From: Bacilli bacterium
GTDB lineage: Bacteria > Bacillota_I > Bacilli_A > RFN20 > CAG-826
Assembly: GCA_024408075.1 (NCBI GenBank)
Contig: JAKSVK010000005.1
Location: forward strand, 4,942 to 68,941
Direction of reading: 5' to 3'
Length of the DNA stretch: 64,000 nucleotides
Each line of letters opens with the position of its first letter. Positions within the stretch are counted from its first letter, which is position 1. Positions 5,486-46,259 of this stretch are shown here, one piece after another. The notes below the pieces were generated by a model. The model was not told the DNA's origin and did no database searches. It saw only the letters and a program-made list of their open reading frames with translations. The translations under genes were made by a program, and so were the position numbers.

Positions 5486-7393
5486 TTATTTTTTCAAATA
5501 TCCTAATATATCTTCAATTATTAATGATGAATCACCAACAATTAATTTCTGATATTTTTGAACAAATTTCTTATTTTCAAACTTTATCGCAGTAGCTTCA
5601 TCCCTATAAACAAATAAACATTTACTCCAAATTAGAGATTTCTTGGCTTTTTCAACAAAGCTTATATGTGTATTTTTATCACACACAACTATCAAGACAC
5701 TTGTTTTAATCTTTCTAAATTGTTTTGAAAGAATTTTTCGATGGTTTAAATCTTCATAATTAACCACAATGTATGCTGGTTTGTATTCAATTATATCTTG
5801 GATAAGTTTAGTGCGTTGTTCTTCTGTAACTATCTCACTAGGATTAAAAATCATGTTGTTACGTTTCTTGTCATCAATTAATAAACCATCAGCAGCAAAA
5901 TAATAAGAGCTATCAAAATTATCCATAAGCGTTTTGTAATGAACGTCTTCTGGAACAACAATTTCACTTTTTTTATTATTGAATGAAGCAATAATTATTG
6001 TTGAGATTAATGAGATTAATATTGATGTAGGGAAGAAAATTTGATCAGTTAAAGTAAACAAGAATCCGAACATCATTGGGACATAAAAGCCAAAGCGATA
6101 ATTGGTAATTTTTATTCTCTTTTGAAATTTGATTAAACAATAAACAATTAAACCAATAAAAAGTAAAGTTATTGGTAATCCATACCCACATGCAAGTTGG
6201 ACAAAATTGGTGTGTGGAGGGGCAGAAAGAGCATATTCATGCAAAATATTAGTCGCTCCAACACCGAAAAGAACATAATTTGCTTTAGTGAACATTTTAG
6301 AAAAATATTCCGAAATCAAAGTTAAACGATTGCCGGCAGATGAAGCATCTTTTTCAAAGAATCTATTCACAATACGAATTAAAGTTTTAGTATCTATAAG
6401 TGATAGTAAGGATATAAATAATAAAACTGAAAATAAAACAATAAAAGCATCAATTGGTTTTGTTCTTTTATGAATTATTGAAAACACAAGTACTGCAATT
6501 CCTAACAAAATTACAAACAATATAAAACTACGAGAGTTTGTCCAAAAACCGAACAATATAATTACAATGCCAAGAATAATGCATGCAATTTTATCTTTTT
6601 TATTTTGTATAACCGGATAAATAAAATAAGCGGACGCTCCACCAATTAAGGCGCTTAATCCAACATTATTTGAATTTTCACCTATACGCATATCGCTTAC
6701 ATATGGATAAGGAACTTTACATCCAGTATTAACCCAATTTACAGCATTGTCCCTTGAGCCAAAACGATATGAATTTAATAAATTTTTAAAATTAACCCAA
6801 TCATAAGCTCTATGTCGAATACCCCAAATGCCAACTTCAACTACTTGGAAAGTAACTAAAATATAAGTAACAACATACCCAAAAATAAGCATCAAAACGT
6901 GCTTATAATTAAACAACTTTCTATTATAAAAACAAAAACATAAGAAGAATAGAGCACAAAACAAACGAATTGAATCTTTAATGTTTAAATTTCCATAGGC
7001 AAGCGTTAAAACTATTTCTAATAAACAGAAAAATAATGGAACAGAAATTATTAAAATCCATGTTTTAATTGAAAATTTCTTAAAAAATCTAATTATAATA
7101 AAAGCTACCAAAATGCCAAAAATAAATAAATCTGGTAAGCCTATTGCAAACGGAACGGTATAAACAAAAAGATATAAAAAATAATTATTATTTAATAAGA
7201 TCGAAAAAATAAGACAAAAAGCAACAAACAAGTATTTATTTATAGCTATATGAAATACATCTCTTGTTAAACACAAAAGCGGAAGCAATACTAAATACGA
7301 AATAAAAATAATTTTTTGTAGTTTCGATGCATTAAACAAAGACTGCATTTTAAAACTTACTAATTCTAAAGGTTTTTTTAACGCGTTCATCAT
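5486..7393 (-). CDS. Wzy-like polytopic membrane protein (O-antigen/capsule polymerase or ligase family) with a C-terminal ~164-aa soluble extension
   Basis: 635 aa, with more than 10 predicted hydrophobic helices over the first ~470 aa. The sequence then continues from NNKKSEIVVPEDV... to the end without any TM segment. Located between wzx and the uronate genes. Confidence 0.6.
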   Translation of the reverse strand: MMNALKKPLELVSFKMQSLFNASKLQKIIFISYLVLLPLLCLTRDVFHIAINKYLFVAFCLIFSILLNNNYFLYLFVYTVPFAIGLPDLFIFGILVAFIIIRFFKKFSIKTWILIISVPLFFCLLEIVLTLAYGNLNIKDSIRLFCALFFLCFCFYNRKLFNYKHVLMLIFGYVVTYILVTFQVVEVGIWGIRHRAYDWVNFKNLLNSYRFGSRDNAVNWVNTGCKVPYPYVSDMRIGENSNNVGLSALIGGASAYFIYPVIQNKKDKIACIILGIVIILFGFWTNSRSFILFVILLGIAVLVFSIIHKRTKPIDAFIVLFSVLLFISLLSLIDTKTLIRIVNRFFEKDASSAGNRLTLISEYFSKMFTKANYVLFGVGATNILHEYALSAPPHTNFVQLACGYGLPITLLFIGLIVYCLIKFQKRIKITNYRFGFYVPMMFGFLFTLTDQIFFPTSILISLISTIIIASFNNKKSEIVVPEDVHYKTLMDNFDSSYYFAADGLLIDDKKRNNMIFNPSEIVTEEQRTKLIQDIIEYKPAYIVVNYEDLNHRKILSKQFRKIKTSVLIVVCDKNTHISFVEKAKKSLIWSKCLFVYRDEATAIKFENKKFVQKYQKLIVGDSSLIIEDILGYLKK

Positions 7394-7452
7394 TTAATTA
7401 TTCCTAAGCCACTTAAAGTTTATCATAAATAAAGATAAATAGTTAATAACAA

Positions 7453-8940
7453 CTACTTATCTTCCTTTCTATCTTTTTTATGAAAATGGTTTTTAAAGAA
7501 ATTTATAACCTCGAGACGTATATTTAAATAAACATCATTTTTTAATAATTTGCACAATAAAAGATAAATACAAGCGCCAACAACAATTTGGACGACTAGT
7601 AAAACAATGTAGTTTATTTTAATGTAACTTAATCCCAAAACAACACCACCCATAACAACAGCACTTAATATTGTTTTCCATGAATCTTTAAACATGTCAA
7701 ATAAACTGTAACCAATTATTCTTTTTACAGGAATCATAATAACGATTACATCAACCCACATACTAATAGCAAAACCAATTGCTACAGCAATAACACTATT
7801 AAAACAAGCAAGCGAAATAATCAAAATGCCAATCATAATTATTCTTCTAACAATTTCAAGTATAAGGTAAACATTTGATTTTCCAAGTGCTTTAATAGCC
7901 ACTAAATTAGCAGAAGAGAAAGGCATAGTAGCCCAAGCTATAGCTATAAGTTGTAGATAAGGCACGCAAGGTAACCATTTATCTGTTAATAATAATTTAA
8001 CAAGTGGCTCTGCTATTACTAATAATCCAAACATAGCAGGTAAAATTAGCAAAATACTAACTTTTACTGTCTTACTAAGCATATATTTCACTTTCTTCTT
8101 ATCTTCTTGAACAGAGCTTATTGTAGGAAGCATAACGTTTTGTATTGAACTATCTAATGTGGTAGCAATTATATAAGGAATTTGACGGCCTCTATCGTAA
8201 TAAGCCAAATCTGCCTCAGAATATTTTTTCCCAATTATAATTGAGCGAATGTTGTTATAAAAAGCAGTCAGTAATGCGGAAACAAGCATTTTCCAACCGA
8301 AACTAAATAATACTTTGGCTTTTTCCAATGAAAATTTTAATTTTGGAAACCATTTTTGAACAATTGCCATACCAGCGCAAGAAAGCAAACTATGTAACGC
8401 ATAGTAAAGCAAAATAGACCAAACTCCCAAGCCAAGATAAGCTGAAACAATTCCAACAGTTCCTGAAATAACACTAGAAACAATATTTACCAGCATCAAT
8501 TCTTTGAATTTCATTTTCTTTTCTAATCTAGCTGATAAAACAGAACTAAATGGAACAAAGAGCAATGAAAATGAGTAAACTTGAATGATTTTTACTAATG
8601 AATCAGAATGGTAAAACTGACTAATTACTGGCGCACAAAAAAATAGCACCACAACCATTACAGCAGAAACTGCTAAATTAATAATGAAAACAGTAGAAAA
8701 ATCAAGATCATCAACTTCTTTTTTTTGAACAAGAGCTACTTTAAACCCACCAGCAATGATTGTCTGAGAAATATCAACAAAAGCCATAACAATAGCAACA
8801 ATACCAAAATCATTTGGTGACAAAATCCTTGCTAAAACTATGCTAATTATTAAACCAATAGCTTTTGAAATAAGACTTATTATTACAGAATACGCCATTG
8901 ATGACGCTACTACTTTTTTAGTAATTGGTTTAGTTTCCAT
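7453..8940 (-). CDS. wzx: Polysaccharide flippase, MOP/Wzx family
   Basis: 495 aa and highly hydrophobic, with a roughly 12-14 TM pattern. The N-terminus resembles the Polysacc_synt family. Context is a glycan locus. Confidence 0.75.
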   Translation of the reverse strand: METKPITKKVVASSMAYSVIISLISKAIGLIISIVLARILSPNDFGIVAIVMAFVDISQTIIAGGFKVALVQKKEVDDLDFSTVFIINLAVSAVMVVVLFFCAPVISQFYHSDSLVKIIQVYSFSLLFVPFSSVLSARLEKKMKFKELMLVNIVSSVISGTVGIVSAYLGLGVWSILLYYALHSLLSCAGMAIVQKWFPKLKFSLEKAKVLFSFGWKMLVSALLTAFYNNIRSIIIGKKYSEADLAYYDRGRQIPYIIATTLDSSIQNVMLPTISSVQEDKKKVKYMLSKTVKVSILLILPAMFGLLVIAEPLVKLLLTDKWLPCVPYLQLIAIAWATMPFSSANLVAIKALGKSNVYLILEIVRRIIMIGILIISLACFNSVIAVAIGFAISMWVDVIVIMIPVKRIIGYSLFDMFKDSWKTILSAVVMGGVVLGLSYIKINYIVLLVVQIVVGACIYLLLCKLLKNDVYLNIRLEVINFFKNHFHKKDRKEDK

Positions 8941-10080: not shown

Positions 10081-10986
10081 TTAACCTTTTATTACTGGTG
10101 GGAGTTCAATCAAATTTCCCAATGTTAAGTCCCAATTATTTGGAATAAATTTCTTAAATCCACAATCGGAAAAGAATGTATATTCTGAAAAATACACTTT
10201 GTTATTAATAATATAAAAATCGGTACGAATGTGTGGAAAATCAGCACTTAATTTTCTTGCTAAATTCAAAATTTCATCTAGTTTTTTAGGTTTTGGCAAA
10301 ACAATAGAACTATTTGGAAAATTCTGTCTAATATCAAGCTTTTTCCAATTTACATCATAATAATCAACAGTTTCATTTTTTGTTTTATCATTCAAAATTA
10401 CTTGAATAAGTTTTGGTTCGCCACCAAAGTTTAGGACTTTATAAACTGGTAACACATCGTAGTTTCCATCTTTCATATATGTTTCTACCAAAATTCTTGG
10501 TTTTACATTTTTATATGGCCATTCTCTGCCACGATAAAAATAATTCTGTTTCATAAGATTCTTAAACTTTTCCTTATACAAACCAGGTTCAAATTCATTC
10601 TTATTTTTACAAATAACGACGCCACCGCTATTATGGGTTAATTTAATTACAAATTGATTAGGCAGAATATCAAAGTCAATTTCATCAAAAGAATTATAAA
10701 TTCCAATTGAAGGAATAACATATTGTTCACCAATTTTTTCGGAAATAATTTTTTTAACATCATATTTATCTACCATTGTCGAAAAATCTTTTTTACGATA
10801 ATACAGTTTCAGCCATTGAAGTTTTTCATTAAATGTTTTTGGCTGTTTTAAATTTAGTCTTTCGCCAGTTTCAATTTTATAACAAATTTTTAAGTATGTT
10901 TTGTCGTTAATCCAATTTAGAAAACCATGATCACGAAATGAAAAAAATAATTTTTTGAATGTATATTTTTGTTTTCTTTTATTCAT
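10081..10986 (-). CDS. TupA-like ATP-grasp protein (teichuronopeptide-type amidoligase family)
   Basis: Family hallmark FNEKLQWLKLYYRK is present, along with VIKLTHNSGGVVICKN and a C-terminal DFYIINNKVYFSEYTF. Call is by motif recognition only. Confidence 0.65.
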   Translation of the reverse strand: MNKRKQKYTFKKLFFSFRDHGFLNWINDKTYLKICYKIETGERLNLKQPKTFNEKLQWLKLYYRKKDFSTMVDKYDVKKIISEKIGEQYVIPSIGIYNSFDEIDFDILPNQFVIKLTHNSGGVVICKNKNEFEPGLYKEKFKNLMKQNYFYRGREWPYKNVKPRILVETYMKDGNYDVLPVYKVLNFGGEPKLIQVILNDKTKNETVDYYDVNWKKLDIRQNFPNSSIVLPKPKKLDEILNLARKLSADFPHIRTDFYIINNKVYFSEYTFFSDCGFKKFIPNNWDLTLGNLIELPPVIKG

Positions 10987-16126: not shown

Positions 16127-17245
16127 TTATTTTTTCTTCCAATTTTTAATTAATTTTTTAGAAATATCCGCGAATTGCTGAGAATATTCACCAAAAAGAG
16201 GTCCAGTAGCAAGTTGTGAATGATACATTCCAATACCTCTTAAATTCCATTCAATAAAGATTGGATTATCATCTTTATCAATGGTTATATCCCAACCAAT
16301 AATTCCTAACATAGGCATTGATTCATGTGCCTTAAGTGCAAGTTCAATTACCTTTTTATAAGAAGGGACTTTAATCCCTCCAAATTTGACGCCATTTGGA
16401 AGAGTTTGAATTTGTTTTGCATTTTCAAAATATCCAACATCATCTAATTTGCCATTTTCATCAATGCCAATAATAACAACGCCAACTCCTGCCGAAACAT
16501 TTTTATTACACGCTATAGAATCGGTTGTATTACAAAGTAGCGCACTTGACAAAAGTACAGCTTTTCCATTAACAATTGCTGTTACAATCCTCATAGCATT
16601 CACGCTTTTTGGACTTAATTTTTTAAACTCATCACACTGAAGTATTAACTCTTGGATGATGTAATCCTTTTTATAATTGTTGAATATATCATCAACTTCA
16701 TCTTTATTTGAAATAAGTTTAAGATTTTTGCCTTCTCCAGAATCAATGGATGGTTTAACAATTACTGGAAGATTATTCAAAATAATATTTTTAGCATCAT
16801 CAATTTGTACATGAGAATAATTGCTATCAAGAAAATAGCCATTAACATTCCTTAATATTGTTTTTGGAAATGGTAAATTTGGCTGATGTAATTCAAAATA
16901 ATTTTTATCATCCCATGCAGAAACAATCTTTCTATCACTAAGGCCTGGATCTAAATAAACTCGAAATATTTTTTCAGGACAATAACGCACATCAAATTTT
17001 CCATGAACATTTAGCATTATTTCGTGAGTGACAAAATCACTTTTTTTCGGATCTTTAATGCCCCAATAAGATACAATTTCCTTTTTTTCGTTTCTTGTTA
17101 ACTTTTTCCAATTTTTATAATTTGGTTTTGCGTCTTTCAATTGATTAAAAGAATAATGTTTTGACCAATTCCTTCTAAAAGAATCATGAATAAAAGCATC
17201 AAATCTAAGATAGATATTAGTAAAACTAGGCTTTATATAATTCAT
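16127..17245 (-). CDS. ATP-grasp ligase, sugar-transfer-associated type (paralog A)
   Basis: VIVKPSIDSGEGKNLKLI and C-terminal IEWNLRGIGMYHSQLATGPLFGEY. Clearly homologous along its whole length to the adjacent ORF 17242-18357. Confidence 0.6.
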   Translation of the reverse strand: MNYIKPSFTNIYLRFDAFIHDSFRRNWSKHYSFNQLKDAKPNYKNWKKLTRNEKKEIVSYWGIKDPKKSDFVTHEIMLNVHGKFDVRYCPEKIFRVYLDPGLSDRKIVSAWDDKNYFELHQPNLPFPKTILRNVNGYFLDSNYSHVQIDDAKNIILNNLPVIVKPSIDSGEGKNLKLISNKDEVDDIFNNYKKDYIIQELILQCDEFKKLSPKSVNAMRIVTAIVNGKAVLLSSALLCNTTDSIACNKNVSAGVGVVIIGIDENGKLDDVGYFENAKQIQTLPNGVKFGGIKVPSYKKVIELALKAHESMPMLGIIGWDITIDKDDNPIFIEWNLRGIGMYHSQLATGPLFGEYSQQFADISKKLIKNWKKK

Positions 17246-18357
17246 TTTGTTTCCTTCCTAAATACTTCATCTAAAATTTTTTCTGTTAGATCACCGAAAA
17301 ATGGTCCCATTAAAGCTTGAGTATACATTGTGTCAATTTTACGCATATTAACTTCAATTAAAACTATATTTTCATTTTCATCAACACATAAATCAACTCC
17401 AACAAACCTAAAATGACCTGTATACAAACTTACTTTTTTAGCGGTTTCAAGCATACATTCAAAATTAGGAATTTTAATTTGAGACAGAGGCATTCCATCT
17501 GGATGAGTTTTAAGGCGATTACCACTATGAAAATCAGAAGAACTTATTGCGTTTGGCATTATTGTTCCATCTTCATTAATTGGGGCAAGAATGCTAGATT
17601 TTGCACTAACATTATCAACACGACTAGTTCCTGCTCCCATTCTCATAACAGCACTTAAAATATGAACACCATCTTCTAACAACATTGTGGTAACTCTAAC
17701 CGTATTCAAAGATTCAGGATGCATTTTTCCCATTTCCGGATGCTGTTTAATTATTTGCTGAACAACAAAATTTTGTTCTTTTCCATTTAAAAGATTATCG
17801 AGTGCTTTTTTATCGGTTTTTGTATTATAAAATTTAATATTTTTGCCACCACCCGTATCTTGAGAAGGTTTAACTATTACTTCATCATTTTTTAATATAA
17901 TATCCATGGCTTTTTTTGATGTTAGTAATTCGTAATTTTCATCAAACAACAATGAATCAATCTTTCTAACTAATGTTTTTGGTTGTTTAAATTTAGAAAA
18001 AATTAAAGAGTAATTATTTTTATCATTAAAACCATATGATAGTTTTCTAGAATTAAAATGTTGGTCAATTTTAGTTTGCATTATATCTTCAGGAATATAA
18101 CGTGGATCAAACTTGCCAGTCATAAAAGTAAAATATCTAAACCAATTCATTTTTACTTTACAATAAGGTTTCCAATATGCTCGTACAGCTTTTTTCTGTT
18201 TCGAAGTTAGTCTAGGCATTCCTTTTATTAATTTTCTTAGTTGTTTTCTTTTTAAGAAAATAACTCCAATATTCTCAGCTTTAATTGCAGGAGCCTCAAA
18301 CAATTTATAATATAAATTTCTAACTCTTTTACTTATTTTCATCTTTTTGCTCCTCAC
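17242..18357 (-). CDS. ATP-grasp ligase, sugar-transfer-associated type (paralog B)
   Basis: VIVKPSQDTGGGKNIKFY and IEVNMRKIDTMYTQALMGPFFGDL. ATGA overlap with paralog A, and overlaps the end of the PGT gene. Confidence 0.6.
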   Translation of the reverse strand: MRSKKMKISKRVRNLYYKLFEAPAIKAENIGVIFLKRKQLRKLIKGMPRLTSKQKKAVRAYWKPYCKVKMNWFRYFTFMTGKFDPRYIPEDIMQTKIDQHFNSRKLSYGFNDKNNYSLIFSKFKQPKTLVRKIDSLLFDENYELLTSKKAMDIILKNDEVIVKPSQDTGGGKNIKFYNTKTDKKALDNLLNGKEQNFVVQQIIKQHPEMGKMHPESLNTVRVTTMLLEDGVHILSAVMRMGAGTSRVDNVSAKSSILAPINEDGTIMPNAISSSDFHSGNRLKTHPDGMPLSQIKIPNFECMLETAKKVSLYTGHFRFVGVDLCVDENENIVLIEVNMRKIDTMYTQALMGPFFGDLTEKILDEVFRKETK

Positions 18358-18997
18358 TACTTATTACGCTTGATTTACTTTCATCATTTTTAGAAGACTG
18401 ATTTCTATAAACACCTTTATGAGAGAAAACTGTTGGAACAGTCATAAATAATATTTTTAAATCAAGCCATAATGAAATATGTTCAACATAATAAACATCC
18501 GTTTCGCAATGTTTCAAAAATGAAGTTGAATTCCTTCCTTGTGATTGGTCTAATCCTGTTAGTCCAGGAAGAACATTAAACTTTTTTAAATAGAACTTAG
18601 GATATTTTTCAATATTGCCTAATGGGCTAGGCCTTGGTCCAATAAAAGACATTTGACCAATAAGAATATTAAAAATTTGAGGTAATTCATCTATACTAGT
18701 TTTTCTTATAAATTTGCCTACTTTAGTTACTCTAGGGTCATCAATTGAGTTATAGGTAGTCCCGTCTTCATTTCTAATATCTAACGCATCGACTTTCATG
18801 GATCTGAATTTGAGCATTTTAAATTCTTTTATATTTTTTCCAAGTCTTTTATCTAAATAAAATATTGGACCATGATCCTCAATCAATATTGCAATAGCGA
18901 CGGGAATTGTTATAAGCAATACAAAAGGCATTATGATTAGTGAACCTAATATATCAAAAAACCTTTTAATTATTACCCTATAAAACGTTCTCATCAC
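18329..18997 (-). CDS. Small monotopic phosphoglycosyl transferase (bacterial sugar transferase, PglC/WbaP C-terminal type), the initiating enzyme
   Basis: KRFFDILGSLI, KMLKFRSM and DELPQIFNILIGQMSFIGPRP. Confidence 0.85.
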   Translation of the reverse strand: MMRTFYRVIIKRFFDILGSLIIMPFVLLITIPVAIAILIEDHGPIFYLDKRLGKNIKEFKMLKFRSMKVDALDIRNEDGTTYNSIDDPRVTKVGKFIRKTSIDELPQIFNILIGQMSFIGPRPSPLGNIEKYPKFYLKKFNVLPGLTGLDQSQGRNSTSFLKHCETDVYYVEHISLWLDLKILFMTVPTVFSHKGVYRNQSSKNDESKSSVISSEEQKDENK

Positions 18998-19851
18998 TAC
19001 TTATCCTCTAATTTAATTTTTTGTAGACCTTCCCAAAATGAATACAAATGCTTATACCCAGCATTTTTAATTTTTGATGTATCAAAATACGAATTAATTA
19101 TCGTTTCTTTGATTGAATCGTTATATGTCAAATTCCCTACATTGTCAAAACACTCATTGATTTTTGTAGCAACTTCTAAATTAGTTAATGGTTCTCCACT
19201 TCCTAAATTATAGATTTGGTTTGTTGTTTTGAACTCATAAACGCTCCAAACAAGGGCATTGATTACTTCTCCAACATAAATAAAGTCGCGCTTTGCAATG
19301 CTATTCCCGTTTAATAATAGTTTTTCTTTCGCTTTTGCATTATCGATAAAAATTGAAATCATTCTTTTTAAAACGTCCCCACCATAAACAACACTGCATC
19401 TAAAAATTGTGTATTCAATTCCTTTTAAAGAGTAATTTTTAATAAGTTGCTCACATTTTTGTTTAGATATTCCATATGCTGATTGAGGAAATAGTTCTTG
19501 TTCCTCTGTCCAAGGAATAGCCTTTTGATCTGAATAAACTGCAATTGAAGACAAAAATATAATTCTTTTAACATTTGCATTAACCATTGCTTTTAAAATA
19601 TTCTCAGTTAATTTTTCGTTTTCTTTAAATAAAGAGTAATTATTTTCAGTTCCTCTTCTAGCTGCTAAATGAATAATCACATCTGCACCTTTAAAAATAT
19701 TAGCTAAATTATTAACGCTGTAATCGGTGTTTTCTAAGCCATCTTCTTGATCCTTAGTTAACCCAACTATTTCATCTTTTTTGTTTTCTTTTAAATACGA
19801 AAATAATCTACTTCCAATATTTCCAGATGCACCAGTAATAATTATTTTCAT
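18997..19851 (-). CDS. NAD(P)-dependent epimerase/dehydratase/reductase (SDR)
   Basis: IIITGASGNIGSRL and YGISK (YxxxK). Confidence 0.7.
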   Translation of the reverse strand: MKIIITGASGNIGSRLFSYLKENKKDEIVGLTKDQEDGLENTDYSVNNLANIFKGADVIIHLAARRGTENNYSLFKENEKLTENILKAMVNANVKRIIFLSSIAVYSDQKAIPWTEEQELFPQSAYGISKQKCEQLIKNYSLKGIEYTIFRCSVVYGGDVLKRMISIFIDNAKAKEKLLLNGNSIAKRDFIYVGEVINALVWSVYEFKTTNQIYNLGSGEPLTNLEVATKINECFDNVGNLTYNDSIKETIINSYFDTSKIKNAGYKHLYSFWEGLQKIKLEDK

Positions 19852-19852
19852 T

Positions 19853-20953
19853 TTATAACTTCCTAATGTAATACCCTATTTTGTCAAATCTACCATTTAC
19901 TGGACGAATCTCATCTCCATCTTTATAGTAATAGAAATGATAAATTGCATCTCCAGGTAACTCTAATTTTGATCTATCCATTTTTGTATGTGGTTCTTGA
20001 CACCAAAACACTAATTCCATTGGGATGATCTTATCGTTTAATTTGTTGAGTTCACTAACATCATTATTTAATAAATGCTCAAAAGTTAATTTCATCAAGT
20101 TGACATTTGTAGACTTCTCTAAAACATTCCACATATGGCAACCATCAAGTCTAGGTGTAACTTCAATAAGATAGACTTCATTTTTCATTATTTTGAGTTG
20201 GAAATAGGCAGGACCGTTTTCAATTCCTATTCTTTTGCTGCAGTCCTTTACCAAATCAATCATTTTATTTTTTAAGTTGTTATCAAAGGTTTTGCCAGGA
20301 ACAATATGACGATGAATTAAACCTGGGTATTTTTCCCACGTATCTCTATCTGAGGCGACAAAATATCTCAGTTTTCCATCAACAAAATATGCATTAACAG
20401 AAATTTCTGGGCCATCAATATATTTTTCAACAATGACTTTTCCTTGACGAGAAAACTGTTTTGCTTTTTCAAATTTTTCTTCAAGCTCATTTTGGTTATG
20501 AATTATAAATATACCTCTTTGGCCTTGAGAATCTGAAGGTTTTAAGAAAACAGGAAAATCAATCTTAATTGGCTCAACTTCTGATAACACTTGATAAGGA
20601 ATATTACCTTTACATTCACTAGATAATTTATTTCTTAGTTCATTTTTATGATTGCAAATATAAGCAGTTGCTTCACTTACAAAATGAGGCATATTTAAAT
20701 CCTCGCTAATTTTACATGCGACAGGCATTGCTAAATCAGATCCAGCAGAATAAACAACATCAATATTGTTTTTCTTAATATAACTTTTAATCTCTTCAAC
20801 ATTTAATATATCAATAACATCAAAATGATCAGAAGCATCTGCTGCCGGGCCATCTTTACCTCGAGCAATTGTAAATGTCTCATGACCCATTTTTTTAAGC
20901 TCAATTACCGCATCGTATTGAGCAGATGATACTCCAAGAATTAAAACTTTCAT
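19853..20953 (-). CDS. ATP-grasp domain ligase (carbamoyl-phosphate-synthase-L/PylC-like)
   Basis: A pre-ATP-grasp Rossmann N-terminus, then FLKPSDSQGQRGIFII and VEKYIDGPEISVNAYFVDG. ATGA overlap with the aminotransferase gene. Confidence 0.65.
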   Translation of the reverse strand: MKVLILGVSSAQYDAVIELKKMGHETFTIARGKDGPAADASDHFDVIDILNVEEIKSYIKKNNIDVVYSAGSDLAMPVACKISEDLNMPHFVSEATAYICNHKNELRNKLSSECKGNIPYQVLSEVEPIKIDFPVFLKPSDSQGQRGIFIIHNQNELEEKFEKAKQFSRQGKVIVEKYIDGPEISVNAYFVDGKLRYFVASDRDTWEKYPGLIHRHIVPGKTFDNNLKNKMIDLVKDCSKRIGIENGPAYFQLKIMKNEVYLIEVTPRLDGCHMWNVLEKSTNVNLMKLTFEHLLNNDVSELNKLNDKIIPMELVFWCQEPHTKMDRSKLELPGDAIYHFYYYKDGDEIRPVNGRFDKIGYYIRKL

Positions 20954-22236
20954 TTTTTATTTTCCTTGTCTAAATATTTTGAAACCACGCTCTTAAAGCA
21001 TTCGATAACATAATTAACATCTTCATTCGAAAGCTTGCTATATAAAGGAAGTGAAATTTCATTTTCGAATTTAGCATAAGCTATTGGATATTCCTTAATA
21101 TCAAATCCTAAATTTTTGTATGCAGTAAGAAGAGGGAGTGGCTTGAAATGAACATTTGCACAAACTCCAAATTTTGATAATTCAACAATTATCTCATTAC
21201 GTTCTGCACAATTTATACCAGGTATTCTAGTAGCGTAAATGTGTCCTGAACTAATATAATCGTTGGTACAGTGATTTAATGTTTCAATACCTAAAGGTTT
21301 AAAAGCTTTGTCATACATTTTAATAATCTCATGCCTTCTAGAAACCATTTCAGGATATCTTTCTAATTGGCCGAGTCCAATAGCTGCCATGATGTCGGTC
21401 ATGTTGCTTTTATACCATGTTCCAACAACATCATATTCCCAAGCGCCTAATCGTTCTTTTGAATAAGCATCTTTGTTTTGACCATGTAAACTATATAGTT
21501 GAATTTGATGGTATAAATCATCATCATCTATCCCATCAAAATGTTTAAAAGTAAGTGCGCCGCCTTCACCAGTAGTGAAGTTTTTTGTTGCATGAAAAGA
21601 AAACGCGGTAAAATCGGCAATGGTTCCGATTCGTTTTCCTTTATATAAAGCACCTATTGCGTGTGCTGCATCATCAATAATAGCAACTCTTCCTAAGCTC
21701 TTTTGAACTTTTGAGGTTGCTACAAAAATATCTTTTTTTCTATTAACAATTTCAAAAATCTTCTCATAATCGCAAGGAACGCCAGCAATATCTACAGGAA
21801 TAATCGCTTTTGTGTTTTCATTTATTGCTCCTTCAAGTTTTTCATAATTCATTTCAATTGAACCATTTTTATTTGAACAATCAATTAAAACAATTTTGGC
21901 TCCAACATGATTAATAACTGAAGCTGAAGATGTATATGTATAAGCACAAGTTATAACTTCATCTTTAAGACTTCCGCCAGATTGTGGGCCAACACCAAGT
22001 AAACGCAAAGCAATCTCCAAAGAAGCGGTTGCAGAATTAAGGCATACACATCTAGCACATTCTTGTTTCTCTTTGTTAGTAAGATATTCGGCAAGTTTTT
22101 TCTCAAGTAATTTAGTTTTTGGCCCGGTAGTAATCCACCCAGAACGTAAAACCTCAGCGACATTATCAATTTCTAATTGAGATATATCAGGAATTGTAAA
22201 CTTAATTTCTCTTTTTTCCATTTTTAATTGCCTCAA
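20950..22236 (-). CDS. DegT/DnrJ/EryC1/StrS-family sugar aminotransferase (PglE-like)
   Basis: DDAAHAIGA and SFHATKNFTTGEGGAL (PLP lysine motif). Confidence 0.85.
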   Translation of the reverse strand: MRQLKMEKREIKFTIPDISQLEIDNVAEVLRSGWITTGPKTKLLEKKLAEYLTNKEKQECARCVCLNSATASLEIALRLLGVGPQSGGSLKDEVITCAYTYTSSASVINHVGAKIVLIDCSNKNGSIEMNYEKLEGAINENTKAIIPVDIAGVPCDYEKIFEIVNRKKDIFVATSKVQKSLGRVAIIDDAAHAIGALYKGKRIGTIADFTAFSFHATKNFTTGEGGALTFKHFDGIDDDDLYHQIQLYSLHGQNKDAYSKERLGAWEYDVVGTWYKSNMTDIMAAIGLGQLERYPEMVSRRHEIIKMYDKAFKPLGIETLNHCTNDYISSGHIYATRIPGINCAERNEIIVELSKFGVCANVHFKPLPLLTAYKNLGFDIKEYPIAYAKFENEISLPLYSKLSNEDVNYVIECFKSVVSKYLDKENKK

Positions 22237-22239
22237 AAG

Positions 22240-22887
22240 TTAATTGCTCATTCCTTCATCTAACATTTTTACTACTTGAAATCCTTCGGCGTATTCGACT
22301 TCATTTGAATAACCCCAAACATGATTTCTTTCGATATTCATCTCAAAAAGTCTATTCATTCTATTATGTTCTGGGCCATAGTAAGATAATGCCTTTTTCT
22401 TAAGTTCAACAAAATCAGAAATATCCACAAAATAACTTTGCGTAAAATTCATTTCTAGAGCATAGCCATTGCTTACGTATTCTAAAATGTTTTTGCAATG
22501 TCTCGCAGCGGTAAGACAAATTTTATTTGCTTCAACATGATCATTATTCATATCCATTCCAAAATGAATAAATACTGTATCAATGTTGTATTTATAAATT
22601 ATGTTTTCAACTTGTTGCATTATTTCTTTGCTATAAGCAAGGGTTGAACAAGGAACTGGATTTTCATTTTCAATTTCAATAACGCCTAACGCTTTCGAGG
22701 CCATTTTACTCGCATTTTTTGAAGAATCATAAGAAACATTAATGTTTCTTTCTTTAAAATCTGTTTCATTATCAGTAAGTGTGAATTTAAAAACTTTTTT
22801 GCCGTTTTTAACTAGTTTGGCCATCGTTCCACCACAACCTAATTCGGTATCATCGAAATGTGCACCAATAAAAAGTATGTTTTTCAT
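22240..22887 (-). CDS. PIG-L/LmbE-family N-deacetylase
   Basis: ILFIGAHFDDTELGCGGTMAK (AHPDD-type metal motif) and a downstream NNDHVE. Confidence 0.75.
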   Translation of the reverse strand: MKNILFIGAHFDDTELGCGGTMAKLVKNGKKVFKFTLTDNETDFKERNINVSYDSSKNASKMASKALGVIEIENENPVPCSTLAYSKEIMQQVENIIYKYNIDTVFIHFGMDMNNDHVEANKICLTAARHCKNILEYVSNGYALEMNFTQSYFVDISDFVELKKKALSYYGPEHNRMNRLFEMNIERNHVWGYSNEVEYAEGFQVVKMLDEGMSN

Positions 22888-22899
22888 GTTCTACCTCTT

Positions 22900-24054
22900 T
22901 TATTTACTTTCAATTTCTTTAATTATTTTTTTAACAAGTGATTCCATTGTGAAATCAGAGTATTCACTTAAAATATAATCAAAAGGAATTCTTTCTTTAT
23001 TTTTTGACTCTTTAATAAATTTCTCAATTTTGTGTATTTTTTCATCAGTTAGTTCATCGTTTTGATAAACACAGATTTTATTTTGATAATCTTGTAAATA
23101 CTTTGTCCCGCAACAATCTTTAATTTTCTCAATATGCAAAATTGGTTTGCCTGAAGCAATAAAATCAATTACTTTGCTTGGACACATATTTGTAGAATCA
23201 TGTCCCATACTAACCAAAACATCAGCATTAAGCATTACGTTATGTGCATCATTTTGACTAATTCTTTCATGGCAAATGTATTTATCTTGTAACTTTTCTT
23301 TCCATAGATTAATAGTGTTCTCATAATCACCAAGTTTCCCAATTGTGTAAAGCTTTACTGGAAGTGAAATTTTTTCAAATAATCTAAAAATAAAATCTGT
23401 ATTCTCAACACCTAAATAAAAATCACCTAGAAAAACACAGTTTATAAATTTAGGGTCAAAATTGATTGGACATTTATCATTTGTTTTCTTAATTTGACGA
23501 ATGCATGGAAGATGAAAATAAATAATCTTTTCTTTAAACGAAGCATTTTTGTAATCTTCTTCAAATTCTTTTAGAAATAATATTTTATTTGAGCGATTAA
23601 ACGCTTGTTCTTCGAGCTTAATAAATTCTTTCTTCTGTTCCATGCTTATGTGTGGATTATATGCATATGGATCAAACGAAATTGGAATCCATTTACATTT
23701 TCTATCTTTTAAAGCTTCAAATGTTAAAAGATTAACTTCAAATGCTTCTGCAACCGAGAACACACAGTCGTATTTTGTTGTATCAAGAATTTTTCCAATT
23801 GAATAAATAACGTTTCTACATTTTTCAAAACAAATATTTTGTCTTGGATAATCTTTTAGTTTAATGATGTTTACTTTGTTATGTTTGTCTGAATAAGAAA
23901 AAGATTTCCCAGATATCTCAATAGGGAAAACATCAACAGTGTATCCAAGGTTAGTTAAAGCTTCAGCAGTGCGGACAGTAATGCTGGTTGTAGCACTTGA
24001 ATCTGGATAATATGTATCTGTTATAAATAACAATCTTTTTCTAAGGTTTTCCAT
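22900..24054 (-). CDS. GT-B-fold glycosyltransferase-like protein (divergent)
   Basis: LLFITDTYYPDSSATTS N-terminus and C-terminal PSKVIDFIASGKPILH. No clean EX7E motif. Confidence 0.5.
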   Translation of the reverse strand: MENLRKRLLFITDTYYPDSSATTSITVRTAEALTNLGYTVDVFPIEISGKSFSYSDKHNKVNIIKLKDYPRQNICFEKCRNVIYSIGKILDTTKYDCVFSVAEAFEVNLLTFEALKDRKCKWIPISFDPYAYNPHISMEQKKEFIKLEEQAFNRSNKILFLKEFEEDYKNASFKEKIIYFHLPCIRQIKKTNDKCPINFDPKFINCVFLGDFYLGVENTDFIFRLFEKISLPVKLYTIGKLGDYENTINLWKEKLQDKYICHERISQNDAHNVMLNADVLVSMGHDSTNMCPSKVIDFIASGKPILHIEKIKDCCGTKYLQDYQNKICVYQNDELTDEKIHKIEKFIKESKNKERIPFDYILSEYSDFTMESLVKKIIKEIESK

Positions 24055-24062
24055 GCAACTAA

Positions 24063-24071
24063 ATTATAACA
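24063..24071 (-). promoter_or_regulatory. Extended -10 element (TGtTATAAT) 8 nt upstream of ATG 24054
   Basis: The minus strand reads ttgTTATAATttagttgcATG. No Shine-Dalgarno sequence lies between the -10 and the ATG. Confidence 0.35.
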
Positions 24072-24186
24072 ATACTTAAAGTATAGTTATATTAGCGTGA
24101 TATCTCAATTTATTTTTTTGCCACCAAAAATAAAACTTAAAAAATGATAATAATTTTTTAATAGTTAATCCAACAACTATGATAAC

Positions 24187-26067
24187 CTACTTATCGTCTT
24201 TATCAATTGTGTATGTTTCAATTATCGATGCTAATAATTTTTTAACATCAGTGGTTTCTTCCATATTAAACACATTTGAAATAGTTCTAATTTCTTCTTC
24301 GATTGGTTTAATTGATTCTTTTTCTTCTACAAAAATACGTTCATTTTTTGTTCTTGTCTGAGTATTCACATCTAGAAGCAATTCTTCAAACAATTTTTCT
24401 CCGGGTCTTAAACCAGTTTCAATAATCTTAATATCTTTATCAGGGACTAAGCCGGCTTGCCTAATTAACTTAATTGCGAGATCATAAATTTTAACTGGTT
24501 TGCCCATATCCAAAATAAAGATCTCTCCACCTTCTGCATATAACCCACATTGAAGGATTAAACTAACTGCTTCTGGTATAGTCATAAAATATCGAACAAT
24601 ATCTTTATGAGTTAATGTAATAGGTCCACCTTCTTCAATTTGTTTCTTAAATAACGGAACAACTGAACCATTTGAGCCTAAAACATTGCCAAAACGAACT
24701 GCAGCATAAGCTGTATTTTTAGATTTTTCTGAAAAATATTGAATTATGGTTTCTGCAAAGCGCTTTGTTGCACCCATAGTATTTGTAGGTCGAACAGCTT
24801 TATCGGTACTTATTAACACCATTTTCTTAACCTTATATTTATCTGCAAATTTCGCAACATTATATGTACCGATAACATTCGTTCTAATAGCTTCTATAGG
24901 ACAGTCTTCCATTAATGGAACATGTTTATATGCAGCGGCATGATAAATGTAATCTGGCTTATATTTCTTGATAATTTGTTCAACACTAGTTTCGTTATAT
25001 GTTGAGCCAATTAATGCAATAAGTTCAATATCATTAATATTTTCTTTTCTCATTTTACGAATGAGTTCTTGTTGAATGTCATAAGTACAGTTTTCGTAAA
25101 TATCAAAAACAATTAACTTCTTAGGATGCATTTTAAAGATTTGACGCATAAGTTCCGAACCAATGGATCCACCACCACCAGTAACTAAAACTGTTTTACC
25201 TCTTAACATCTCATTAACTTCAGTGTTGTCTAATTTAATTGGATCTCTATTAAGAAGCTCTTCAATATGAACATCCGTTACCTTAATATCTTTTCGAGAA
25301 GATATTTCACTTAAAAGCGGGAGTCTACGAACTCTTACATTACATGCTGATAAGCAATCAACAATTTCGCGAAATCTTTCTTCCGTTAAATTAGCAATTG
25401 CAATAATTGCTTCTTCAATTTCATATTCTTTTGCTATCTTTGAAACGTTACTAATCGGACCGACTACATCAATATTGAAATACGGTGTTCCAAATTTCTT
25501 TTCATCATCATCTACCAATACAACAATATTATTTTCTGACTTTGGATTATTTTTTAAATCATCAATAACAATTTTTGCAGCAGCACCTGCACCAATAAGC
25601 ATCGTGCGAACTCCAAGCTTTCTTTTTTCATTCATTCTTTGTACTACTTTAATTTCTCTAGGTAGATCACGAATAAATATGAGTAATAATAAAATCGCTA
25701 GAGAAGTCAAAAGCCACGTAATAATGTGTTTAGTTGTAAAATGAAGTTCTTTAACTGCAAAAAGAACAATTAAACCTATCAAAGCTGAAATAGAGTAGCC
25801 AATAGCAACTTTAATTCTATCGGTTAAGCAATAGTCATCGTATTGAGTGCGATAAAGCTTAACAAAAGCAAAAATAACAACAGTAATTAAAGCAGTACCA
25901 CTACAGTATAAAAGAATTCCAGTTAATGAACTAGCAAACGCATCTTTTGAGTATGAGCCAAGAAATCCTAAAAATGTTATGCCAAATATAATGGTTATAT
26001 CTAATAATATGTATAATTTTGTTAATGTAAAAAGCTTTTTCATAGATGCCTGATATAATACAGGCAT
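24187..26067 (-). CDS. Membrane-anchored UDP-HexNAc 4,6-dehydratase (CapD/PglF/Polysacc_synt_2)
   Basis: Four N-terminal TM helices, then VLVTGGGGSIGSEL, AAAYKHVP and STDKAVRPTNTMGATKR. The start is ambiguous (ATG 26067 or ATG 26043). Confidence 0.85.
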   Translation of the reverse strand: MPVLYQASMKKLFTLTKLYILLDITIIFGITFLGFLGSYSKDAFASSLTGILLYCSGTALITVVIFAFVKLYRTQYDDYCLTDRIKVAIGYSISALIGLIVLFAVKELHFTTKHIITWLLTSLAILLLLIFIRDLPREIKVVQRMNEKRKLGVRTMLIGAGAAAKIVIDDLKNNPKSENNIVVLVDDDEKKFGTPYFNIDVVGPISNVSKIAKEYEIEEAIIAIANLTEERFREIVDCLSACNVRVRRLPLLSEISSRKDIKVTDVHIEELLNRDPIKLDNTEVNEMLRGKTVLVTGGGGSIGSELMRQIFKMHPKKLIVFDIYENCTYDIQQELIRKMRKENINDIELIALIGSTYNETSVEQIIKKYKPDYIYHAAAYKHVPLMEDCPIEAIRTNVIGTYNVAKFADKYKVKKMVLISTDKAVRPTNTMGATKRFAETIIQYFSEKSKNTAYAAVRFGNVLGSNGSVVPLFKKQIEEGGPITLTHKDIVRYFMTIPEAVSLILQCGLYAEGGEIFILDMGKPVKIYDLAIKLIRQAGLVPDKDIKIIETGLRPGEKLFEELLLDVNTQTRTKNERIFVEEKESIKPIEEEIRTISNVFNMEETTDVKKLLASIIETYTIDKDDK

Positions 26068-26154: not shown

Positions 26155-27123
26155 TTAATTTGAATTTACTGTTCTATTTTGAAGAAATCCTTTTGATTCA
26201 ATCTTTTTAAATATAATAGGATACAAAGTCATAAATAATAATGGGGTAGACATTTTTAAGAAGAAATGCATTATTCCATTATCTACTATTTTTCCTACCG
26301 GACCCACCAGAAGAGTTTCCCATGCAATATATAAGAATCCGCCAACAACTGCTCTAGCAACTTTTTGAGCTGTTGTTCCATTAGTATCAAATTTAACAAA
26401 TCTTCTTTCAATAAACCAGCCAGTCATAATTCCAAAGAAAACACCTGGATCTTTAAATCCATCCACCGTCATCTTTTTTGGGTCAACAATTAGTTTTCCA
26501 TCAATATAATCTAATGGATAACTTTTTAATGAAATATATAAAAGAAGACCAATGACTAAAATAGTAGCAATAACATAGATTATAATGTCAGCATTTTTAT
26601 ATTTATCGCAAAGATTTAAAAGAAATGCAATTAATACTGAAGAAGCCGCACCAACCGCTAAAGCAACAAGAACATCTTGTGGTGTATGAACTCCTAGATA
26701 TAATCTAGAAAACATTGTCAGTAAGACCATAGCGATTCCAAATACAATTACCCACCAATATTTTTTAAACGCCGCTATCATTCCACCATAAAATCCGGAT
26801 GTCGATGAAACATGTCCGCTAGGAAATGAATATCCAGTTGCAGCACCTAAAGCGCCTGGAACTGGTTTAATTCTTGCATCTCTAACCCAAGGTCTATAAA
26901 CAGAAAATGTGGCCTTAAAAAACGCACCAAAGAAAATTGATGTTCCGTATGAGCATAATATATTAGCTGCTCTTCGTTTACTAAAGTTCCAATAAATAAT
27001 TAAGGCAGGAACCATTATAAAATAATCAACCGCAATTAAAGTTATAAAAAGGAAGAAATTATCAAAACATCCACCTATAGATTCTCTCCAACACTGTATA
27101 CCATATAAAAAATCTAAATCCAT
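26155..27123 (-). CDS. PAP2-family membrane phosphatase
   Basis: PSGHVSS and SRLYLGVHTPQDV motifs. Polytopic. Confidence 0.8.
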   Translation of the reverse strand: MDLDFLYGIQCWRESIGGCFDNFFLFITLIAVDYFIMVPALIIYWNFSKRRAANILCSYGTSIFFGAFFKATFSVYRPWVRDARIKPVPGALGAATGYSFPSGHVSSTSGFYGGMIAAFKKYWWVIVFGIAMVLLTMFSRLYLGVHTPQDVLVALAVGAASSVLIAFLLNLCDKYKNADIIIYVIATILVIGLLLYISLKSYPLDYIDGKLIVDPKKMTVDGFKDPGVFFGIMTGWFIERRFVKFDTNGTTAQKVARAVVGGFLYIAWETLLVGPVGKIVDNGIMHFFLKMSTPLLFMTLYPIIFKKIESKGFLQNRTVNSN

Positions 27124-45547: not shown

Positions 45548-46259
45548 TAATACCTCCAAATCTTCTATTTCGCGAATAATATTCATTTATACATTTTCTA
45601 AATTCTTCTTTAGTAAAATCAGGCCAAGGAATTTCTGGGAAAATAAATTCCGCATATGCAAGTTGCCAAGGAAGATAATTGCTTGTCCTTAATTCACCTG
45701 AAGTTCTAATTAATAAATCAACGTCAGGCAATCCTGCTGTATATAAATGATTAGAAAAAGCATTTTCATCAATATCTTCAATTTTAATTTTATTGTTTTT
45801 AACTTCTTCAGCTAATAATTTAGCTGCTCTAACAATTTCAGCTTTTCCACCATAATTAAGGCAAATATTAAAAACAAAATTTTTGCATTCTTTAGTCTTT
45901 TCAATAGCTTCATTTATGGTTTTTTGTGTTTTTTTAGGTAAGGCAGAAATGTCTCCGCTAATAATAACTCTTGAACCGTCTTTAATAATTCTCTTAATTT
46001 GTTTCTTAAAAAAGATATCTAAGTAATTGAAAAGATGGTTGATTTCATCTTTTGGACGATTCCAATTTTCTGTGGAGAAAGCATATAAAGACATTACTTT
46101 AATATCTTGAGCCAAGCATTCTTCATATATATCGATAATACGATCGCATCCAGCTTTATGACCTAAATGACGTGGAAGTCCACGACGTTTGGCCCAGCGT
46201 CCATTGCCGTCCATAATAAACGCAACATGTTTTAATTTAATTTCTTTTGATTTTGCCAT
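45531..46259 (-). CDS. uppS: Undecaprenyl (isoprenyl) diphosphate synthase
   Basis: HVAFIMDGNGRWA, LYAFSTENWNRP and RTSGELRTSNYLPWQ. Start trimmed to MAKSKEIKLKH (ATG 46259). Confidence 0.93.
   Translation of the reverse strand: MAKSKEIKLKHVAFIMDGNGRWAKRRGLPRHLGHKAGCDRIIDIYEECLAQDIKVMSLYAFSTENWNRPKDEINHLFNYLDIFFKKQIKRIIKDGSRVIISGDISALPKKTQKTINEAIEKTKECKNFVFNICLNYGGKAEIVRAAKLLAEEVKNNKIKIEDIDENAFSNHLYTAGLPDVDLLIRTSGELRTSNYLPWQLAYAEFIFPEIPWPDFTKEEFRKCINEYYSRNRRFGGINDDEK

Follow-up and report, generated by a model that had tools for sequence, protein, structure and literature searches.

A probable Pat/Pyl-type initiating-sugar cassette and an adjoining GT4-like/PIG-L unit in the polysaccharide locus of an uncultured, apparently wall-less bacterium

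This report concerns a 64,000-nucleotide stretch of contig JAKSVK010000005.1 (assembly GCA_024408075.1, a Bacilli bacterium), referred to below as the window, and in particular the genes at positions 18329 to 26067, which are predicted to supply the first sugar of a surface polysaccharide. We read this interval as two functional units. The five-gene unit A probably belongs to the initiating-sugar cassette type of the Bacillus cereus Pat and Pyl genes, whose product is UDP-yelosamine; gene content, homology, synteny and phylogeny all point to this reading, to which we assign a probability of about 0.72. Unit B is a pair of genes that encode a glycosyltransferase family 4 (GT4)-like protein and a PIG-L-family de-N-acetylase. 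A preliminary description of this DNA had presented the interval as a bacillosamine-type module in which an ATP-grasp ligase and the PIG-L protein replace the usual N-acetyltransferase. The genes that it named are all present, on the minus strand and where it placed them, but it overlooked two others inside the interval, at 24054-22900 and 19851-18997. As to novelty, biochemical characterization of the cassette dates from 2014 and copies of it are found in at least 39 loci of public genomes; the window carries a new copy within the known Pat/Pyl family, not a new kind of system.

Unit A begins with a PglF/CapD/WbpM-type membrane UDP-N-acetylglucosamine (UDP-GlcNAc) 4,6-dehydratase of 626 amino acids (24187..26067; Polysacc_synt_2, 393.6 bits, plus CoA_binding_3). 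Beyond unit B, it resumes with a Pat/Spr1654-type pyridoxal phosphate (PLP) aminotransferase of 428 amino acids, counted from a TTG codon (20950..22236; DegT, 286 bits), followed by a Pyl-type ATP-grasp carboxylate-amine ligase of 366 amino acids (19853..20953; ATP-grasp_4, 60 bits), a BC5271/3M2P-type extended short-chain dehydrogenase/reductase (SDR) of 284 amino acids (18997..19851; Epimerase, 134.7 bits), and a small monotopic phosphoglycosyl transferase (PGT) of 222 amino acids (18329..18997; Bac_transf, 203.9 bits). All five lie on the minus strand.

The same five genes occur in the same order in B. cereus, where BC5274-BC5270 encode a PglF-type dehydratase, Pat, Pyl, the SDR BC5271 and the small PGT Q814Z7. 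In PMC11626204, Pat and Pyl of strain ATCC 14579 are placed directly upstream of Q814Z7, and the similarity cluster of PGTs that includes Q814Z7 is described as largely having a Pyl-type ATP-grasp in its neighborhood. The same paper gives UDP-yelosamine as UDP-D-FucNAc-4N-2-oxoglutarate (FucNAc, N-acetylfucosamine), formed when Pyl ligates 2-oxoglutarate to UDP-4-amino-FucNAc (Hwang 2014, via PMC11626204). In genome annotation, BC5270 is a PGT and BC5271 a “UDP-GlcNAc 4-epimerase”, and BC5272 and BC5273 fall within the BC5263-79 exopolysaccharide (EPS) cluster. The reference used for sequence comparison was locus L090 of a second B. cereus strain, located at the chromosomal site that corresponds to the one in ATCC 14579 (an mbl-fabZ...lytR EPS locus). 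Its dehydratase, aminotransferase, ATP-grasp, SDR and PGT genes are collinear with those of the window, with respective identities of 46, 54, 53, 33 and 59%. Like the B. cereus locus, the window cassette has no need of PglD. It differs in that the GT4-like/PIG-L pair lies between the dehydratase and the aminotransferase, in that two ATPgrasp_ST genes are joined to the 3′ side of the PGT, and in that it resides in an apparently wall-less bacterium with a 1-Mb genome.

The order dehydratase, aminotransferase, ATP-grasp, SDR, PGT also heads capsule or EPS loci in Mediterraneibacter gnavus and Bacillus luti, as it does in B. cereus. When loci were sorted by the identity of their ATP-grasp protein to that of the window, those with at least 44.5% identity (clade 1, n = 43) differed sharply in gene neighborhood from those with 39–44% (clade 2). 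For instance, a PGT lay within 2.6 kb downstream of the ATP-grasp gene in 42 of 42 clade-1 loci versus 1 of 36 in clade 2, and an aminotransferase with at least 45% identity lay upstream in 34 of 40 versus 1 of 38. An SDR directly downstream was common to both (38 of 42 and 22 of 39, respectively). In a maximum-likelihood tree, the PGT-linked ATP-grasps formed a clade of 39 rows (support 97/83) that contains the window, B. cereus and B. luti. Clade-2 genes adjoin other sugar aminotransferases, as in a Vibrio arrangement of RmlB, RmlA, GT56, ligase, SDR, hexapeptide protein and DegT. At L056:5924-12823 and L073:6893-11554, clade-2 ATP-grasp, SDR and hexapeptide protein form a triad beside DegT, accompanied in the Vibrio by RmlA, RmlB and GT56. 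The triad probably serves to N-acylate dTDP-4-amino sugars, and the ligase-SDR pair has the look of a portable unit for the N-acylation of 4-amino sugars.

The first two reactions of unit A can be assigned from established knowledge of the enzyme families. PglF-type dehydratases are recognized by the motif TDKxnMx3K (PMC8987622), and the window enzyme carries TDK421 and MGATK431 together with four N-terminal hydrophobic segments, in keeping with a membrane-bound PglF-type dehydratase. The aminotransferase probably starts at an ATG at 22221, five codons inside the open reading frame called from TTG at 22236; this codon is preceded by GAGG and would give a protein of 423 amino acids. Among solved structures, the enzyme is closest to Spr1654 (6EWJ; full-length match, E 4e-144), and the PLP lysine of the SFHAxK motif is conserved (SFHATK in the window). 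In contrast, ArnB, perosamine synthase and PseC scored far lower. Spr1654 is a pneumococcal enzyme assigned to the synthesis of UDP-2-acetamido-4-amino-2,4,6-trideoxygalactose (UDP-AATGal; PMC5936713), and the product of the B. cereus locus aminotransferase is a galacto-configured 4-amino sugar, the 4-amine of FucNAc. Since Spr1654 is the nearest solved relative and identity to the B. cereus locus enzyme reaches 54%, the sugar is probably galacto-configured rather than bacillosamine, contrary to the preliminary description. The enzyme would use glutamate to form UDP-4-amino-4,6-dideoxy-GalNAc (FucNAc4N/AATGal; GalNAc, N-acetylgalactosamine), with release of 2-oxoglutarate.

The ATP-grasp gene overlaps the aminotransferase stop codon as ATGA (20953/20950), as first noted in the preliminary description, and stands between aminotransferase and PGT, in the slot held by PglD in loci for N,N′-diacetylbacillosamine (diNAcBac). 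The window has no hexapeptide-repeat gene, and TIGR03570 (NeuD/PglB/VioB) did not reach its cut-off anywhere in the genome, which is 94.5% complete; the earlier statement that a PglD-type acetyltransferase is absent thus stands for window and genome alike. Three hexapeptide-repeat proteins are encoded elsewhere, namely a WbbJ-like protein on contig C8, a Vat/CatB-like protein on C38 and a GlmU-C-like protein on C1. The first of these was considered as a canonical acetyltransferase for the pathway and set aside, as it is a WbbJ-like protein of 165 amino acids without the PglD N-domain, beside another PGT and LicD.

Proteins of the ATP-grasp family numbered 1221 at E ≤ 0.001, and the best 120 were all at least 54% identical. 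Over 370 aligned columns the window protein is 53% identical to P0165, which is encoded in a B. cereus EPS locus as its ATP-grasp, and an alignment of 14 sequences from distant taxa showed 110 invariant columns and a mean column identity of 69%. The AlphaFold2 model is confident (predicted local distance difference test score, pLDDT, 91.5), and the solved folds nearest to it belong to carboxylate-amine ligases, namely L-amino-acid ligases and PurT. Homology and synteny with B. cereus make it most likely that the ATP-grasp enzyme attaches a non-acetyl acid to the 4-amine of the UDP-sugar, ahead of transfer to the lipid. Such an enzyme would convert a carboxylic acid to its acyl phosphate and then join it to the 4-amine. 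By the B. cereus precedent, we infer the acid to be 2-oxoglutarate, which would also be the co-product of the preceding aminotransferase step. The proposal of a primer with non-acetyl N-acyl groups is retained for the 4-amine and finds no support at C2, where it had depended on the PIG-L protein.

A different acid on the 4-amine, with the logic of the cassette otherwise unchanged, is an unlikely alternative; glycerate, pyruvate, oxaloacetate, malate, succinate or an amino acid could be used. The ligase shares just 53% identity with its counterpart in the B. cereus locus, L-amino-acid ligases are among the nearest folds, Neisseria PglB2 shows that an ATP-grasp can transfer a glyceroyl group, and amide-linked malic and 2-hydroxyglutaric acids are found on such sugars in nature. 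However, the strong conservation of the clade fits a single common substrate, and 2-oxoglutarate is generated in place by the aminotransferase. Far less probable is that the ATP-grasp enzyme forms an amide on a uronic acid within the repeat unit and that the 4-amine of the primer stays free, like that of AATGal in pneumococcal teichoic acid. While the locus does encode a UDP-sugar dehydrogenase and a 4-epimerase, and free-amine AATGal is a known primer (PMC5936713; PMC11626204), the ATP-grasp gene stays fixed between aminotransferase and PGT as the downstream glycosyltransferase and uronic-acid genes vary. Furthermore, the second ATP-grasp clade adjoins aminotransferases of dTDP-sugar pathways, and the B. 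cereus enzyme acts on a UDP-4-amino sugar.

What the slot between aminotransferase and PGT encodes is best seen in loci where its content has changed. On the sister contig L096, the GT4-like, PIG-L and aminotransferase proteins are 71, 84 and 71% identical to those of the window, and the genes after the PGT are likewise shared (ATPgrasp_ST371-like, 51%; ATPgrasp_ST372-like, 70%; glycosyltransferase family 2 (GT2), 66%; DUF1919, 66%). At L096:5044-6929, however, a PurN/ArnA-like formyltransferase and a different ATP-grasp (Pfam LAL_C2, the L-amino-acid-ligase C-terminal domain) replace the Pyl-type ligase and the SDR, and the PGT is only 50% identical. Judged from these comparisons, L096 is a clean cassette exchange at a putative N-acyl slot. 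In L094, from a member of the Bacteroidaceae, a hexapeptide acyltransferase occupies the slot and the PGT is 35% identical to that of the window, versus 59% for the L090 PGT. From these loci, the slot would encode the 4-N-acyl group, the SDR would go with the Pyl-type ligase, and the PGT would track the acyl group. An exchangeable slot of this kind, filled by Pyl-type ligase plus SDR, by a formyltransferase or by a hexapeptide acyltransferase, together with the tracking seen in PGT similarity, helps in predicting PGT substrates. The window PGT has the motifs DELP103 and PRP121 and a single hydrophobic hairpin (residues 8-47). As expected of its family, it would transfer the acylated sugar phosphate to undecaprenyl phosphate to yield the primer of a Wzx/Wzy capsule.

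The SDR is the second of the overlooked genes. Its best solved relative is 3M2P (E 1.8e-42), a structure that bears the BC5271 annotation name and is ~90% identical to the L090 SDR. The window protein has the motifs GASGNIG and YGISK126, as well as LTK33 (LTRS in 3M2P), with a basic residue at the position where NAD-dependent epimerases carry an acidic one. A basic residue at this position points to an NADPH-dependent reductase, and the window SDR is probably such an enzyme. Only two ketones would be within its reach, the one at C4 after the dehydratase step and the 2-oxo group on the acyl arm. Across loci, it is the ATP-grasp and not the PGT with which the SDR co-varies. The 2-oxo group is favored as substrate since the SDR follows the ligase in this way; the SDR would then tailor the ligase product, and our preferred guess is that it reduces the 2-oxoglutaryl amide to a 2-hydroxyglutaryl amide. 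This step is proposed tentatively, as somewhat less probable than its negation. A 4-[(S)-2-hydroxyglutar-5-ylamido]-trideoxyhexose is a known natural residue (PMC3210612), and, if the step is real, it would be the biosynthetic route to the 2-hydroxyglutaramido-trideoxyhexose of the Tenacibaculum maritimum O-antigen.

The alternative substrate, C4, would make the SDR a ketoreductase similar to CapN, WreQ or Preq that converts the 4-keto intermediate to N-acetylquinovosamine (QuiNAc) or FucNAc, so that chains could start with either sugar. In the capN-capM genes of Staphylococcus aureus an SDR likewise stands beside a PGT, and the arrangement in the window recalls this. The apparent NADPH dependence at LTK33 would suit such a role, and B. 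cereus Preq is a reductase of this kind (PMC4514872). We nonetheless regard it as improbable. The SDR follows the ATP-grasp even in clade-2 loci that have no PGT (22 of 39), is lost together with the ATP-grasp in L096 and L094, and is missing from L035 and L042, although these keep the aminotransferase, ATP-grasp and PGT. A CapD-CapN-CapM route to FucNAc was also considered for the dehydratase, SDR and PGT and was rejected as the principal reading on the same observation, that the SDR goes with the ATP-grasp and not with the PGT. As a constant partner of the ligase in two clades, the SDR is an obvious target for assay.

Several points weigh against assigning unit A to the Pat/Pyl type with the chemistry outlined above. 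The link to the characterized Pyl runs through the L090 strain and PDB entry 3M2P, and 53% identity leaves the acid specificity of the ligase unfixed. The SDR is only 33% identical to that of B. cereus, and to reduce a ketone on the acyl arm would be unusual for an extended SDR, since the usual target of these enzymes is the sugar ring. In six clade-1 loci, a hexapeptide-repeat gene lies between the aminotransferase and the ATP-grasp (L009, at 7239-7994; L040; L039; L025; L012; L019), and acetylation and ligation are for this reason not strictly alternatives. Four of these extra genes encode Vat/phosphonate-type proteins of ~250 amino acids and two encode WbbJ-like proteins, which are ~180 amino acids in L012 and present only as fragmented reading frames (90 and 140 amino acids) in L019. 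Finally, the locus carries uronic-acid genes and three other ATP-grasp ligases; several amide bonds could be made by the locus, with assignments permutable among the ligases.

Unit B consists of the other overlooked gene, which encodes a predicted retaining glycosyltransferase of GT-B/GT4-like fold (22900..24054, minus strand; 384 amino acids), and a PIG-L/LmbE-family de-N-acetylase (22240..22887, minus strand; 215 amino acids; PIG-L, 55 bits; BshB1 model, 72 bits). The 384-amino-acid protein has no Pfam or NCBIfam match, and a profile search of the PDB with its family found nothing, so that its placement comes from the fold search. Its AlphaFold2 model (pLDDT 88.6) has a GT-B/GT4 fold, for which the top Foldseek matches are MshA, BshA, WaaG and PimB′ (E 1e-12 to 1e-9), with a probability of 1.00 and template-modeling (TM) scores of 0.65–0.72 for the MshA, BshA and WaaG matches. 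The family is small, with 63 proteins, and a scan of metagenomes yielded 4 loci only. The PIG-L protein has the metal-binding motifs AHFDD and NNDH. Its best solved relative is BshB1 (6P2T, E 7e-13), and diacetylchitobiose deacetylases are also among the nearest.

The GT4-like and PIG-L genes stand side by side in 10 of 11 contexts (the window, L010, L011, L095/L103, L096, L100, L102, L104, L105 and L106); only in L094 are they apart. The pair comes after ATPgrasp_ST genes and not before an aminotransferase in L010 and L011, and in L095, L103 and L106 it has neither an aminotransferase nor this type of PGT in view; L095 and L106 are ABC-transporter loci. Since the pair persists across loci in which the slot content varies or the aminotransferase is lacking, it is, as far as gene neighborhoods can tell, a separate two-gene unit and no substitute for PglD. 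A GT4-fold enzyme beside a PIG-L enzyme is also found in MshA/MshB, BshA/BshB and PIG-A/PIG-L, where the GT4 transfers GlcNAc and de-N-acetylation follows, and the kinship extends to individual proteins: the GT4-like protein has MshA and BshA among its top structural matches, and in sequence the PIG-L protein matches BshB1 best. The window pair differs from the MshAB and BshAB systems in that it lies in a capsule locus, has no thiol-ligase partner, and includes a GT4-like protein too divergent for Pfam. By this likeness, the GT4-like enzyme would add GlcNAc to the growing glycan, and we infer that this residue is the substrate from which PIG-L then removes the N-acetyl group.

The freed amine would in turn be a plausible substrate of the ATPgrasp_ST ligases encoded downstream. 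The GT4-like/PIG-L pair co-occurs with ATPgrasp_ST (372-type) and GT2 (355-type) genes, and the 372-type ATPgrasp_ST is found with the pair and a GT2 in the unrelated loci L094, L096, L100, L105 and L011. This suggests that the ATPgrasp_ST paralogues at 16127-18357 acylate the amine freed by PIG-L.

A quite different role had been put forward in the preliminary description, in which PIG-L strips the 2-N-acetyl group of the initiating sugar and one or both amines receive non-acetyl acyl groups. PIG-L does directly precede the aminotransferase, both in the window and in L096, and extra ATP-grasp ligases come after the PGT; these features would agree with such a role. The idea is nevertheless very unlikely to hold. 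The companion of PIG-L is the GT4-like gene and not the aminotransferase, also where a hexapeptide acyltransferase (L094) or a formyltransferase fills the slot; its nearest characterized relatives, such as BshB1, deacetylate GlcNAc glycosides; and it is absent from all 39 B. cereus-type cassettes outside the sub-lineage of the window. A chain of reactions that connects the two units can also be drawn, in which the BshA-like GT4 glycosylates the 2-hydroxyglutaryl hydroxyl with GlcNAc and PIG-L deacetylates the product, so that the capsule backbone runs through the acyl arm by a bacillithiol-like GlcN-hydroxyacid link (GlcN, glucosamine). This is a distant prospect, much less likely than the SDR step itself, because the GT4-like/PIG-L pair also occurs in loci without a Pyl-type ligase.

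Two other known systems invite comparison with unit A. In Neisseria meningitidis PglB2, as in the window, an ATP-grasp replaces the acetyltransferase in a pathway to a 4-amino-trideoxyhexose primer, and the acyl group of the product is glyceroyl (glyceramido-acetamido-trideoxyhexose, GATDH). This precedent, which the preliminary description had invoked, is real (PMC11130364), but it is more distant than that of B. cereus: the Neisseria ligase is fused to the PGT, whereas in the window the two are separate genes with the SDR between them. The Campylobacter PglF-PglE-PglD-PglC pathway to UDP-diNAcBac shares the logic of dehydratase, aminotransferase and small PGT, including the PglF TDK/Mx3K motif of the dehydratase. 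It differs in the presence of PglD, and in that the window aminotransferase groups with Spr1654 and Pat, which give a galacto 4-amine, and not with PglE.

Units A and B head a single minus-strand polysaccharide locus that spans 26067 down to ~3177, in a window with a G+C content of ~30%. A scan for promoters and terminators did no better than on shuffled sequence, and operon limits are based on gene spacing only. Directly upstream of the dehydratase is a PAP2-family phosphatase (26155-27123, minus strand), which may serve the locus as undecaprenyl-diphosphate phosphatase. The first of the two diverged ATPgrasp_ST paralogues (17242..18357, minus strand) lies directly downstream of the PGT, with its start overlapping the latter, and the second (16127..17245, minus strand) also has an overlapping start. 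Beyond these are a GT2, a DUF1919 gene, GT4s, a TupA-like ATP-grasp, a flippase, a Wzy-like gene, an epimerase and a UDP-sugar dehydrogenase. In all, three further ATP-grasp genes lie downstream of unit A, the third of them at 10081..10986.

The host appears to be wall-less and Mollicutes-like, and to retain undecaprenyl phosphate for surface glycans (capsule or teichoic-like). MraY gave no match in the 94.5%-complete genome, and UppS scored above its cut-off on the contig of the window (45555-46232, minus strand). Among 40 relatives, none has a Pyl-type ligase and just one has a close aminotransferase; the nearest ligases come from metagenome-assembled genomes of Bacteroidales and Ruminococcus. 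From this distribution, the island is taken to have been acquired horizontally, and the cassette to be mobile across phyla. For an uncultured, apparently wall-less gut or rumen bacterium, the opening reactions of capsule synthesis can in this way be assigned to known chemistry. The 1-Mb genome holds several glycan loci. For example, a second PglF-type dehydratase, 81% identical to that of the window, is encoded at C52:34963-36360, where it runs off the contig end, and other small PGTs are found on contigs C47, C3 and C8, the last with the WbbJ-like acetyltransferase, a GT4, LicD and a flippase.

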